From sequence record MT682709.1: DNA of 64,000 nt; one strand, given 5' to 3'. How positions within the stretch are numbered: the first letter of the stretch is position 1; the number at the start of each line of letters is the position of its first letter. Below the pieces are notes generated by a model. That model did not search any database. It had not been told where the DNA came from and was given only the letters and a program-made list of their open reading frames with translations. Origin of the DNA: Escherichia phage vB_EcoM_SP1. The translations under genes were made by a program, and so were the position numbers. Below are positions 33,623-64,000 of this stretch, in pieces.

Positions 33623-33695
33623 TGGGAATTAGCCAAGTTGGTAAGGCACTGGATTTTGATTCCAGGATGCAAAGGTTCGAGTCCTTTATTCCCAG
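33623..33695 (+). tRNA. tRNA-Gln (anticodon TTG)
   Basis: Cloverleaf read by hand: acceptor TGGGAAT/ATTCCCA, anticodon loop TTTTGAT. Confidence 0.85.
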
Positions 33696-33696
33696 C

Positions 33697-33783
33697 GCGA
33701 GAATGGTCAAATTGGTAAAGGCACAGCACTTAAAATGCTGCGGAATGATTTCCTTGTGGGTTCGAGTCCCACTTCTCGCACCA
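33697..33783 (+). tRNA. tRNA-Leu (anticodon TAA), CCA encoded
   Basis: Acceptor GCGAGAA/TTCTCGC, anticodon loop CTTAAAA, long variable arm. Confidence 0.85.
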
Positions 33784-33788
33784 AATTT

Positions 33789-33862
<74 letters not shown>

Positions 33863-33872
33863 ATTTAATTTA

Positions 33873-33946
33873 CTCCGTGTAGCTCAGTTTGGTAGAGCGC
33901 CTGATTTGGGATCAGGAGGTCCAAGGTTCAAATCCTTGTATGGAGA
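33873..33946 (+). tRNA. tRNA-Pro (anticodon TGG)
   Basis: Anticodon loop TTTGGGA, T-arm GGTTCAAATCC. Confidence 0.85.
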
Positions 33947-33948
33947 CT

Positions 33949-34038
33949 GGAGGCGTGGCAGAGTGGTTTAATGCACCGGTCTTGAAAACCGGCAGTCGCT
34001 CCGGCGACTCATAGGTTCAAATCCTATCGCCTCCGCCA
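33949..34038 (+). tRNA. tRNA-Ser (anticodon TGA)
   Basis: Acceptor GGAGGCG/CGCCTCC, anticodon loop CTTGAAA, long variable arm. Confidence 0.85.
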
Positions 34039-34043
34039 GTTTT

Positions 34044-34119
34044 GTTGATTTAGCTCAGTAGGTAGAGCACCTCACTTGTAATGAGGACGTCGGCGGTTCG
34101 ATTCCGTCAATCAGCACCA
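34044..34119 (+). tRNA. tRNA-Thr (anticodon TGT)
   Basis: Acceptor GTTGATT/AATCAGC, anticodon loop CTTGTAA. Confidence 0.85.
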
Positions 34120-34120
34120 A

Positions 34121-34195
34121 GGCCCTGTAGCTGGAAGGTTCAAGCAAGCGACTCATAATCGCCAGATGGTGGTTCAATTCCACCCAGGGCCACCA
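34121..34195 (+). tRNA. tRNA-Ile (anticodon CAT, T4-type) or Met
   Basis: Acceptor GGCCCTG/CAGGGCC, anticodon loop CTCATAA. Confidence 0.75.
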
Positions 34196-34204
34196 AATTA
34201 ATTT

Positions 34205-34291
34205 GGGGAGTTATCCCGTAGAGGTAGCGGTGTGGACTGTAAATCCATTGTCATTGCGACTCGGGTGGTTCGACTCCATCACTCCCCACCA
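34205..34291 (+). tRNA. tRNA-Tyr (anticodon GTA), type II
   Basis: Acceptor GGGGAGT/ACTCCCC, anticodon loop CTGTAAA, long variable arm. Confidence 0.7.
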
Positions 34292-34295
34292 ATTT

Positions 34296-34370
34296 GGATG
34301 TGTAGCTCAATGGCAGAGCGATCGCCTGTTAAGCGATTGGTTATAGGTTCGAATCCTATCACGTCCGCCA
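34296..34370 (+). tRNA. tRNA-Asn (anticodon GTT)
   Basis: Acceptor GGATGTG/CACGTCC, anticodon loop CTGTTAA. Confidence 0.75.
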
Positions 34371-34374
34371 AATC

Positions 34375-34450
34375 CGAGGCATAGCTCAGAAGGAAGAGCA
34401 AGGACCTTCTAAGTCCTAGGTCGTAGGTTCGATCCCTACTGCCTCGACCA
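34375..34450 (+). tRNA. tRNA-Arg (anticodon TCT)
   Basis: Acceptor CGAGGCA/TGCCTCG, anticodon loop CTTCTAA. Confidence 0.75.
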
Positions 34451-60919: not shown

Positions 60920-61393
60920 ATGTTATTGACTGGCAAATTATATAAAGAAGAAAAACAGAAATTTTATGATGCACAAAACGGTAAATGCTTAATTTGCCAA
61001 CGAGAACTAAATCCTGATGTTCAAGCTAATCACCTAGATCATGACCATGAATTAAATGGACCAAAAGCAGGAAAGGTACGTGGATTGCTTTGTAATCTCT
61101 GTAATGCCGCAGAAGGTCAAATGAAGCATAAATTTAATCGTTCTGGCTTAAAGGGACAAGGTGTTGATTATCTTGAATGGTTAGAAAATTTACTTACTTA
61201 TTTAAAATCCGATTACACCCAAAATAATATTCACCCTAACTTTGTTGGAGATAAATCAAAGGAATTTTCTCGTTTAGGAAAAGAGGAAATGATGGCCGAG
61301 ATGCTTCAAAGAGGATTTGAATATAATGAATCTGACACCAAAACACAATTAATAGCTTCATTTAAGAAGCAGCTTAGAAAGAGTTTAAAATGA
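60920..61393 (+). CDS. 49: endonuclease VII (Holliday junction resolvase)
   Basis: 157 aa; matches recalled T4 gp49 (MLLTGKLYKEEKQKFYDAQNGKCLICQREL...). Confidence 0.92.
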   Translation: MLLTGKLYKEEKQKFYDAQNGKCLICQRELNPDVQANHLDHDHELNGPKAGKVRGLLCNLCNAAEGQMKHKFNRSGLKGQGVDYLEWLENLLTYLKSDYTQNNIHPNFVGDKSKEFSRLGKEEMMAEMLQRGFEYNESDTKTQLIASFKKQLRKSLK

Positions 61394-61927
61394 CAATTGA
61401 AAAAGAAATTGAAGGATTGATTCATAAAACTAATAAAGACCTTTTAAACGAGAATGCTAATAAAGATTCTCGTGTTTTTCCAACTCAACGGGACCTTATG
61501 GCTGGTATTGTGTCTAAACACATTGCCAAAAATATGGTCCCGTCTTTTATTATGAAAGCGCATGAAAGCGGAATTATCCATTTCCACGATATTGATTATT
61601 CCCCTGCTCTTCCATTTACTAATTGTTGTTTAGTAGATTTAAAAGGAATGCTTGAGAACGGATTTAAGCTAGGTAATGCACAGATTGAAACTCCTAAATC
61701 AATTGGCGTTGCTACTGCAATTATGGCACAAATTACTGCACAGGTTGCTTCTCACCAATACGGCGGAACGACTTTTGCGAATGTAGATAAAGTACTTTCT
61801 CCTTATGTTAAACGCACCTATGCAAAACATATTGAGGATGCAGAAAAATGGCAAATCGCTGATGCGTTGAATTATGCTCAATCTAAAACAGAAAAAGACG
61901 TATACGATGCATTCCAGGCGTATGAGT
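61390..61927 (+). CDS. nrdD: anaerobic ribonucleotide reductase NrdD, exon 1
   Basis: ORF ends at a group I intron; exon ends in U at 61927. Confidence 0.8.
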
Positions 61928-62138
61928 TAATTTAATTCAGGCTCATGTAAAACCGGTCTAAACGGGGAACCTCTCTAGTAGACAATCCCGTGCTAAATGT
62001 TCTTTTGAACTAAATGCCTAACGACTAACCGTGATGAATGTAGCGGTGTAGAATAGAAGCTAATGCTATTCGAAACGGCCGGCATCGAAAGATGAAGATA
62101 TAGTCTAATCTGCATGGCGACATGCAGCAGTCATCTTG

Positions 62139-62146
62139 TATAAATA
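62139..62146 (+). promoter_or_regulatory. late promoter TATAAATA inside intron, upstream of the endonuclease ORF
   Basis: Exact tataaata 30 nt upstream of ATG 62176; hairpin ctgcatg-gcga-catgcag at 62110-62127. Confidence 0.5.
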
Positions 62147-62175
62147 AGATTATCTTATGAATACGAGGTGAAACA

Positions 62176-62946
62176 ATGAAATGGATAAAAAGACGTTGTA
62201 CTAAAATAAAAGATAAAGACGCATTTACATACTTAGTTAAGTTTTCTAATGGCGACATTTATATCGGTTATAAAAAATTTAGAACAATTAAAAACAAGCC
62301 CACAAACTGGAAAACTTACACAACGTCATCTAAGTATATAAATGAACGCTTAAAAACTGATACACCTACTAAATGGATAATTTTAAAAACATTTGATAGT
62401 TATAAAGATGCATTAAAACATGAAGAAGAGGTCATACGTAAATATTTTTATAGCAAAAAATGTTTAAATAAATCCATAGGCGGTAAAAAGTTTTATAAGC
62501 ATCCGGATACTGAAGAACATATTCAAAAATTAAGAGATGCTCATAAGGGTAAAGTGTTATCCGAATCTCATAAAAACAATATAAAATCTTCTGTAGCTGA
62601 ATATTATGCTAAAAACGGAAGATCTAAGGAACATGTGCAAAATAATATCAATAGTCGAAAAAGTAAAAAACAAGTATCGATAAAGCTTAAAAATAAAACT
62701 TTTAGAAGTTTTAAAAAAGCAGCGGAATATTTAAATTGCACTGAAAGTGAAGTCGAAACTCATCCTCTTGTTTTGAGTATTAAGACTACTATTCATAAAG
62801 TTCCTGAATATGTGGTTGTTGACGGTATTAAGTATACGTCTTATATAGAAGCAGCTAAAGCGCTAAATTTTCATCCTAGCACTATAAAAGAACGTTGCAT
62901 ATCTATGGACTATCCAAATTTTGTTGTTTCATATAAACGGGCATGA
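62176..62946 (+). CDS. I-TevII-like GIY-YIG homing endonuclease
   Basis: 256 aa intron ORF; N-terminal GDIYIGYKKF is GIY-YIG-like. Confidence 0.7.
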   Translation: MKWIKRRCTKIKDKDAFTYLVKFSNGDIYIGYKKFRTIKNKPTNWKTYTTSSKYINERLKTDTPTKWIILKTFDSYKDALKHEEEVIRKYFYSKKCLNKSIGGKKFYKHPDTEEHIQKLRDAHKGKVLSESHKNNIKSSVAEYYAKNGRSKEHVQNNINSRKSKKQVSIKLKNKTFRSFKKAAEYLNCTESEVETHPLVLSIKTTIHKVPEYVVVDGIKYTSYIEAAKALNFHPSTIKERCISMDYPNFVVSYKRA

Positions 62947-62960
62947 ATTTGCGACTCATG

Positions 62961-64000
62961 CTGAATATAATGATGAAGTAAATACACTTTTCAGCTCTAA
63001 CGGACAAACGCCTTTTGTAACAATTACATTTGGTACGGGAACTGACTGGACTGAACGAATGATTCAGAAAGCAATTCTGAAAAATCGCATTAAAGGTCTT
63101 GGTCGTGACGGGATAACTCCTATTTTTCCTAAGCTTGTTATGTTCGTTGAAGAAGGTGTTAATCTTTATAAAGACGATCCGAACTATGATATTAAGCAGC
63201 TTGCTTTAGAGTGCGCAAGCAAAAGAATGTATCCTGACATCATTTCTGCTAAGAACAATAAAGCTATCACCGGTTCATCTATTCCTGTTTCTCCAATGGG
63301 TTGCCGTAGTTTCTTGAGCGTATGGAAAGATTCGACTGGTAATGAAATTCTTGACGGTCGTAATAATCTTGGCGTTGTAACACTGAATCTTCCTCGCATC
63401 GCATTAGATTCTTATATTGGAACACAGTTCAATGAACAGAAATTTACTGAATTATTCAATGAGCGAATGGATTTATGTTTTGAAGCATTGATGTGTAGAA
63501 TTAGTTCCTTAAAGGGAGTTAAAGCTACTGTTGCTCCTATTCTTTACCAAGAAGGTGCATTCGGGGTTCGTCTTAAACCTGATGACGATATAATTGAGTT
63601 ATTTAAAAACGGTAGAAGTTCAGTGTCCTTAGGATACATTGGTATTCACGAATTGAATATTCTTGTCGGTCGTGATATTGGACGAGAAATTTTAACTAAA
63701 ATGAATGCTCATCTTAAACAGTGGACTGAAAGAACCGGATTTGCTTTTAGTTTATATTCTACTCCTGCTGAAAACCTTTGTTATCGCTTCTGTAAACTCG
63801 ATACAGAAAAATATGGAAGCGTAAAAGATGTTACCGATAAAGGCTGGTACACTAACAGTTTCCATGTTTCAGTAGAAGAAAATATTACTCCGTTTGAAAA
63901 GATTTCTCGTGAAGCGCCATATCATTTCATTGCGACAGGTGGTCACATTTCTTATGTTGAACTTCCTGATATGAAAAATAACTTAAAAGGTCTTGAGGCC
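62961..64000 (+). CDS. nrdD: anaerobic ribonucleotide reductase NrdD, exon 2 (continues past window end)
   Basis: Open frame to window end (..TPFVTITFGTGTDWTERMIQKAI..). Confidence 0.8.

Follow-up and report, generated by a model that had tools for sequence, protein, structure and literature searches.

A diverged sister of the T4 sunY intron in the nrdD gene of Escherichia phage vB_EcoM_SP1

The 64,000 nucleotides (nt) of Escherichia phage vB_EcoM_SP1 analysed here (sequence record MT682709.1, hereafter the window) come from a T4-like phage (Tequatrovirus/Mosigvirus), and the nrdD gene near their end is interrupted by a homologue of the T4 sunY/nrdD intron, inserted at the same site. Such elements and the way they are regulated have been in the textbooks since the late 1980s. 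Judging from its sequence, the element is very probably a self-splicing mobile group I intron, a diverged sister of T4 sunY, whose GIY-YIG homing endonuclease would be restricted to late infection. A previous reading of the DNA made without database searches (the sequence-only reading) had recognized a group I intron in nrdD at the T4 sunY insertion site, and the Rfam model agrees: in a scan of the 1.1-kb region alone, RF00028 matched 61892-62127 over the full model (1-253) with 70.6 bits, relative to a gathering score of 50 (E 1.2e-17). The gene is organized as follows.

61390-61927, + strand: nrdD exon 1, 538 nt, taken from the list of open reading frames (ORFs); 523 of 538 nt identical to T4 exon 1; end fixed by intron-less alleles
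61928-62972, + strand: group I intron, 1045 nt, given by the intron-less alleles of T6, RB3 and O157 typing phage 6, which join 61927 to 62973, by the homologous ends of the T4 intron, and by RF00028
62973-64000, + strand: nrdD exon 2, continuing past the end of the window; 989 of 1028 nt identical to T4

The ORF starting at 61390, which follows gp49 (endonuclease VII, 60920-61393), matches the N-terminus of NrdD and meets a TAA stop just past the intron start. Exon 1 ends with U61927, the first position of a Tyr codon, and exon 2 supplies the rest of the codon. The exons are 96-97% identical to those of T4, and every indel between the two phages falls within the intron, with a net gain of 12 nt in the window. 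The T4 annotation gives nrdD, over 2851 nt, as a join of two pieces, with an intron (NC_000866, 44815-45847) of 1033 nt.

The boundaries follow from alleles that lack the intron. At this point the alleles of T6, RB3 and O157 typing phage 6 have the sequence GCTTATGAAT^ATGAAGTAAAT (...TATGAAT^ATGAAGT...), the empty site being ...TATGAAT/ATGAAGTAAATACTCTCTTTAG... A 400-nt query spanning a 61927/62961 junction matched hundreds of intron-less alleles, and those listed each span 388 nt. Since intron-less alleles lack 1045 nt, not 1033, the intron extends from 61928 to 62972, and its 3' terminus reads ...CUGAAUAUAAUG. Excision at 61927/62973 gives a junction identical to that of the intron-less alleles. 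The sequence-only reading had correctly ended exon 1 at U61927, as shown by these alleles and by the U.G pair that closes helix P1, but it had placed the last intron base at G62960. The 1033 nt that resulted are indeed the length of the T4 sunY intron, but here this figure was fitted to a different allele: the reading had implicitly assumed the T4 version, and the window holds a diverged sister lineage instead. The comparison with intron-less alleles that it had proposed contradicts its own 3' boundary, both by the 388-nt spans and by T6, RB3 and O157 typing phage 6. Its statement that splicing restores the NrdD frame is true of both junctions, but the one at G62960 would encode AYE-SEYND-EVNT, and only 61927/62973 yields the native AYE-Y-EVNT (AYEYEVNT) found in T4 and in the intron-less phages. 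The NrdD spliced at 61927/62973 is identical to that of T4 at 519 of 522 residues (99.4%) and is not interrupted by any stop codon.

The ribozyme core precedes the endonuclease gene. Its helices were compiled from the Rfam alignment, from RNAalifold applied to the window and T4 sequences, and from a hand-built model of the pseudoknotted P7, of P8 and of the 3' elements, since RNAalifold cannot model the P3/P7 pseudoknot and lost P8 to indels. The elements of the core are these.

61928-62127, + strand: ribozyme core (Rfam alignment, RNAalifold against T4, compiled helices)
61922-61927 and 61941-61946, + strand: P1, exon AUGAGU with guide GCUCAU, including the U61927.G61941 pair at the 5' splice site
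61953-58 and 62077-82, + strand: P3 (compiled helices)
61962-67 and 61986-91, + strand: P4 (compiled helices)
61972-74 and 61980-82, + strand: P5 (compiled helices)
61992-93 and 62016-17, + strand: P6 (compiled helices)
61999-62002 and 62007-10, + strand: P6a (compiled helices)
62023-27 and 62101-05, + strand: P7 (compiled helices; assigned by hand)
62028-32 and 62043-47, + strand: P7.1 (compiled helices)
62051-56 and 62066-71, + strand: P7.2 (compiled helices)
62083-86 and 62091-94, + strand: P8 (compiled helices; assigned by hand)
62106-09, + strand: J7/9 (compiled helices)
62110-62127, + strand: P9, the last helix of the Rfam model, CUGCAUG-GCGA-CAUGCAG, 7 bp, -9.8 kcal/mol; stem identical in T4

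The comparison with T4 supports this fold. Among the 63 base pairs that can be compared, 44 are unchanged, 4 differ in one base and 15 in both, and no pair is disrupted. The double-sided changes affect P3, P4, P6a, P7.1, P8 and the 3'-terminal hairpin described below, and P7.2 is wholly rebuilt. Such a pattern argues strongly, on comparative grounds, that selection acts on both lineages for the same fold. The RF00028 match ends exactly at 62127, which identifies the hairpin at 62110-62127 as P9.

Some candidate pairings were discarded. A small hairpin that RNAalifold placed at alignment columns 185-195 is spurious, and a pairing between exon 1 and the region after P9 (columns 3-5/219-221; 3 bp, one compensatory change) was dropped as too short. 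A P9.x pairing between 62129-32 (AGUC) and 62953-56 (GACU) is unsupported, as T4 can offer no more than a 4-bp alternative in a shifted position. The record of phage SA20RB marks the equivalent of 62110-62137 of the window, with P9, as a rho-independent terminator, but no T-run follows and the terminator scan made no call there.

One part of the core has an unexpected relative.

61957-61998, + strand: patch of the P4-P6 core identical to the T4 td intron (blastn, 42/42)

T4 sunY departs from this patch at about 9 positions, and similarity falls off sharply in the flanks. The pattern looks like gene conversion involving introns that reside in separate genes; the td and sunY introns of T4 have reportedly been shuffled in the laboratory. 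The patch also accounts for the hundreds of short matches of at least 99% identity in the megablast search with the intron.

The 3' end of the intron is remote from the core, on the other side of the endonuclease gene, and consists of a hairpin and a short tail.

62940-62962, + strand: 3'-terminal hairpin (62940-46/62956-62), GGCAUGA/UCAUGCU, 7 bp; minimum free energy (MFE) structure, -7.6 kcal/mol
62963-62972, + strand: 3' single-stranded tail GAAUAUAAUG, 10 nt, ending in the terminal G (omega-G) 62972

We folded the 3' tails singly, since the combination of MAFFT and RNAalifold gapped the stem and missed this hairpin. The T4 counterpart (GGUAGAG/CUCUACU, also 7 bp) is likewise the MFE structure; four of the seven pairs differ in both bases, and none is disrupted. 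In a natural G62940A variant a G.U becomes an A-U pair and the stem is kept. Both the ORF stop codon (62944-46) and G62960 lie in the hairpin, the latter paired with C62942, and the terminal G proposed by the sequence-only reading therefore sits within a conserved stem. Beyond the hairpin, A62970-U62971 can pair with A62108-U62109 of J7/9. This would be P9.0, reportedly defined by Michel et al. in 1990 (Genes Dev 4:777) in work on 3' splice-site choice in sunY. In T4, P9.0 is made of UU before the G and AA in J7/9, which makes the A/U swap compensatory. Finally, UGAA at 62974-77 can pair with UUCA at 61936-39 to form a 4-bp P10.

Could the intron nevertheless end at G62960, have 1033 nt, and leave NrdD with SEYND in place of Y? 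This base stands in the same AU-G context as G62972, the resulting junction is in frame, and CUGAAU at 62961-66 complements AUUCAG at 61935-40, flush with P1, which makes a P10 of 6 bp vs the 4 bp of the other site. However, every intron-less allele among the matches listed lacks the additional 12 nt, T4 has an A at this position and splices 12 nt further on, the pair between G62960 and C62942 belongs to a hairpin kept by four compensatory changes, and the resulting protein would be altered in a stretch that does not vary among T4, T6, RB3 and O157 typing phage 6. We regard this boundary as very improbable. A different role for G62960, as a conditionally used alternative 3' splice site to which translation of the endonuclease would divert splicing, is a long shot. 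Only the 3'-terminal hairpin, of modest stability, hides this base, and since its 5' arm is the end of the ORF, ribosomes reaching the stop codon at 62944-46 would melt it. If true, splicing at G62960 would give a NrdD with a 4-residue insertion and tie endonuclease translation to the output of the host gene. With an A at the corresponding position, T4 could not use such a site.

The segment GACUCAUGCUGAAU (62953-62966) repeats the internal guide: its ACUCAU can pair with AUGAGU of exon 1, and the 6-nt complement of 61935-40 follows. T4 has neither the guide repeat nor the 6-nt complement. It could serve as a cryptic 3' splice site, or form a helix that competes with P1.

The region between P9 and the endonuclease ORF contains the elements expected to control this gene.

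62131-62171, + strand: bipartite hairpin sequestering the Shine-Dalgarno (SD) sequence; outer stem 62131-41/62161-71 (11 bp), inner stem 62144-49/62153-58 (6 bp)
62139-62146, + strand: T4-type late promoter motif TATAAATA, assigned from its sequence and from its position, which matches that in T4 with respect to the 5' arm
62152-62173, + strand: copy of the homing site, possible operator; 16/20 relative to the empty nrdD site, overlapping the GAGG
62165-62168, + strand: SD sequence GAGG, 7 nt upstream of the ATG

The hairpin at 62131-62171 is both the MFE and the centroid structure (-17.3 kcal/mol, z -4.95), none of 200 shuffled sequences is as stable, and it buries the GAGG. In T4 the homologous SD stem has 8 bp, and two C-to-U differences retain pairing as G.U. 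The promoter motif starts in the last 3 nt of the 5' arm of the hairpin in both lineages. Transcripts from T4 late promoters start about 6 nt past the motif; an RNA assumed on this basis to begin at 62152 shows no significant folding (-4.0 kcal/mol, z -0.25). In T4, the SD sequences of intron endonuclease genes are buried in a stable hairpin on read-through RNA, and late promoters exclude the 5' arm from the transcript (PMC2988022). The sequence-only reading had located TATAAATA where we find it, at 62139-62146 upstream of the ORF, and it had the right concept in proposing the T4 arrangement of late promoter and hairpin at the ribosome-binding site. However, it had assigned this role to the 7-bp hairpin at 62110-62127, which exists but is P9 and lies 38 nt upstream of the SD without touching it; the element in question is the one at 62131-62171.

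Operators resembling the homing site have been proposed over the promoters of T4 intron endonuclease genes, including a putative one at this position in T4 (PMC2988022). In the window, 62152-62173 gives the best 20-mer match to the homing site within the intron, a score reached by 9 of 300 shuffles (3%), and thanks to a 9-nt insertion that T4 lacks, the match is longer than in T4 (14/20 there, counted by hand). An autorepression operator at this place is possible, and we give it as a lead only.

62176-62946, + strand: GIY-YIG homing endonuclease ORF, 256 aa, ATG start, sister of I-TevII (homology and profile matches)

That this ORF is I-TevII-like had been proposed from the letters and is now supported by an identity of 56% over 256 aa (E 1e-101), which is evenly spread: 58% in the catalytic, 57% in the linker and 52% in the DNA-binding region. 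The Pfam profiles SegE_GIY-YIG (PF19835; 26.6 bits, cut-off 25) and NUMOD1 (25.3 bits, cut-off 22.8) are both passed, and PHROG 314, homing endonuclease, is matched with E 3.6e-29. The protein has the GIY-N10-YIG spacing (FTY...YIG, or FTY-N9-YIG in another count), and the Glu of its HEEE as well as N98 align with I-TevI. No solved structure similar in sequence to the product was found.

We then used the distribution of the intron to look at its mobility. Megablast with the window intron retrieved 43 full-length phage records of 99.4-100% identity, T4 not among them, and megablast with the T4 intron retrieved 25 records of at least 99.2% identity, many of them T4 laboratory stocks, without any carrier of the window type. 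By tblastn, the window ORF is found at an identity of at least 99% in 40 records. Intermediates between the two endonucleases were not found: tblastn of all phage records and a search of 5.8 billion proteins give two clusters only. We found no description of a second nrdD-intron lineage in the literature searched, which leaves out most subscription journals. The carriers are filed under two genera, Tequatrovirus and Mosigvirus; the introns of JK45 and IME537 match that of the window at 100% identity.

In seven carriers compared with the window, mismatches number 0-3 over the 1045 nt of the intron and 42-103 over 1566 nt of the nrdD exons (Fisher p from 1e-8 to 7e-24). The excess is also visible at third codon positions, with 0-2 differences among 256 in the intron ORF vs 40-91 among 521 in the exons, and gp49 in carriers differs from the window by up to 20%. 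An intron nearly identical in hosts whose exons are 2-7% apart indicates recent homing. All carriers share positions +1 to +22 of exon 2, which differ silently from the empty sites at +14, +17 and +20, and the T4 allele differs from them at the same three positions. In exon 1, carriers differ from empty sites at -2 (GAA to GAG), a change that supplies the G paired in P1. These shared exon changes fit short co-conversion tracts, and possibly changes at the cleavage site; the cut made by I-TevII lies some 13-15 nt inside exon 2.

In the carriers F2, JM10, TH58, JK45 and SQ17, gp49 (60920-61389) has only about 80% nt identity with the window and the adjacent nrdD exon 1 has 93-95%, marking a sharp mosaic boundary adjoining nrdD.

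Some copies have lost their ORF. Two independent deletions, in BYEP01 and 215Ecol030PP, reduce the intron to 345 and 479 nt; 61928-62198 and 62884-62972 are preserved in these copies, which still contain the ribozyme and the SD hairpin together with the final 89-194 nt. They constitute a natural deletion map of what splicing needs. The ORF is frameshifted in a few carriers, and in F1/FN and 236Ecol005PP it is split in two pieces. Such decay, for an enzyme whose activity is predicted from sequence, could mean that the intron of the window is itself a relic that still splices and whose endonuclease is inactive or immobile, like I-TevIII in T4. We consider this unlikely: the window ORF is intact and conserved in the 40 records, it has the GIY-N10-YIG motif with the aligned Glu and Asn, and the near-identity of the intron in diverged hosts of two genera indicates recent spread.

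Annotations tell another story. All eight carrier records that we inspected present nrdD as two coding sequences (CDSs) plus a homing endonuclease, and none annotates an intron or a join. Taken at face value, they would mean that there is no splicing and that a free-standing endonuclease gene has split nrdD into two genes, the polypeptides of which assemble or are non-functional. There is a precedent for such an arrangement in nrdA of Aeromonas phage Aeh1, a gene split by an inserted endonuclease gene (PMC3653736). Yet here there is a complete group I core above the Rfam threshold, with 15 compensatory pairs relative to the T4 intron, which self-splices experimentally. The insertion is exact and comes with P1, P9.0, P10 and a terminal G, and the derivatives without ORF still hold 345-479 nt of non-coding ribozyme. 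A split gene is hence hardly credible. The correct annotation of nrdD is join(61390..61927, 62973..).

In the T6 record AP018814.1, the intron-less nrdD CDS bears the label 'RNA ligase 1 and tail fiber attachment catalyst', an evident annotation error.

On the observed boundaries, the ribozyme fold with its covariation relative to T4, the SD hairpin, the endonuclease family and the population signature of homing, we infer how splicing, promoter use, and enzyme cleavage and specificity would work. Exon 1 would pair with the internal guide to form P1, with U61927.G61941 at the splice site, and the remote 3' tail would dock via P9.0 and P10 and present G62972, so that excision restores NrdD. By homology with T4, early and middle nrdD transcripts would hold the SD locked in the 62131-62171 hairpin. 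Because the putative late promoter sits inside the 5' arm of this hairpin, late RNAs from TATAAATA should lack the arm and be translatable, confining the endonuclease to late infection. The enzyme would then cut the intron-less nrdD of a co-infecting phage, and repair would copy in the intron with about 20 nt of flanking exon.

Several observations weigh against a self-splicing intron with a late-restricted GIY-YIG endonuclease. G62960 looks like a competing 3' splice site. The motif TATAAATA occurs 20 times in the window for 10.6 expected in such AT-rich DNA, and is weak when taken alone; it carries weight because of its position and its homology to T4. The generic Pfam GIY-YIG profile (PF01541) scores the ORF at 10.3 bits, below the cut-off of 22.6; T4 I-TevII has no match to this profile at E<=1 and also falls just under the SegE and NUMOD1 cut-offs. 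Because nrdD is dispensable in aerobic culture, a splicing defect is not necessarily purged. Finally, an Rfam scan of the whole 64-kb window at gathering thresholds reported tRNAs only and not the intron. This miss of a 70.6-bit intron is a filter effect, and it is a caution for automated pipelines that rely on default whole-window scans.

A cluster of ten tRNA genes lies at 33623-34447 on the + strand of the window, and one of them (34207-34286) barely passes its threshold (30.2 vs 29 bits).

The main practical value of these results lies in the correction of the annotation and in the natural occurrence, at a single site, of two diverged introns with diverged endonucleases. The two are deeply diverged, occupy the identical site in closely related phages and have no intermediates, which makes them suitable to study the co-evolution of ribozyme and endonuclease. 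The pair also permits tests of shared target recognition and of competition between rival selfish alleles. The lineage of the window is the commoner one among sequenced isolates, with 43 vs 25 records. In addition, the compensatory changes independently support the secondary structure of sunY, including the remote 3' hairpin and P9.0.

The T4 td intron, which encodes I-TevI, belongs to the same intron subgroup as the intron of the window, has a GIY-YIG endonuclease and uses the logic of late promoter and hairpin at the ribosome-binding site (PMC2988022) that is predicted for the window. It differs in its host gene and in the position of the ORF, which lies in the P6 loop in td and after P9 in the window. 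I-TevI and the window ORF have 24% identity, and the two introns are dissimilar outside the 61957-61998 patch. The burial of the SD combined with a late promoter is common to the hairpins of I-TevI, I-TevII, I-TevIII, segB and Aeh1 mobE (PMC2988022). The hairpin predicted in the window is bipartite (11 + 6 bp), with an inner stem added by the 9-nt insertion, whereas T4 I-TevII has a single 8-bp stem.

The closest known system is the T4 sunY/nrdD intron with I-TevII. It interrupts the same host gene at exactly the same point, and its parts come in the same order: core, P9, SD hairpin with TATAAATA, ORF, 3' hairpin and 10-nt tail. P1, P7 and P9 are identical, and the endonucleases align over their full length with the same architecture. 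The two introns differ in length (1033 nt in T4 vs 1045 in the window), as do their endonucleases (258 vs 256 aa), and P3, P4, P6a, P7.1, P7.2, P8 and the 3' hairpin use different base pairs. Identity amounts to 145/203 positions in the core (~71%), 486/780 nt in the ORF (62%) and 13/26 in the tail. The intron of the window thus shares the site of T4 sunY/nrdD and is a diverged sister lineage, not the allele of T4.

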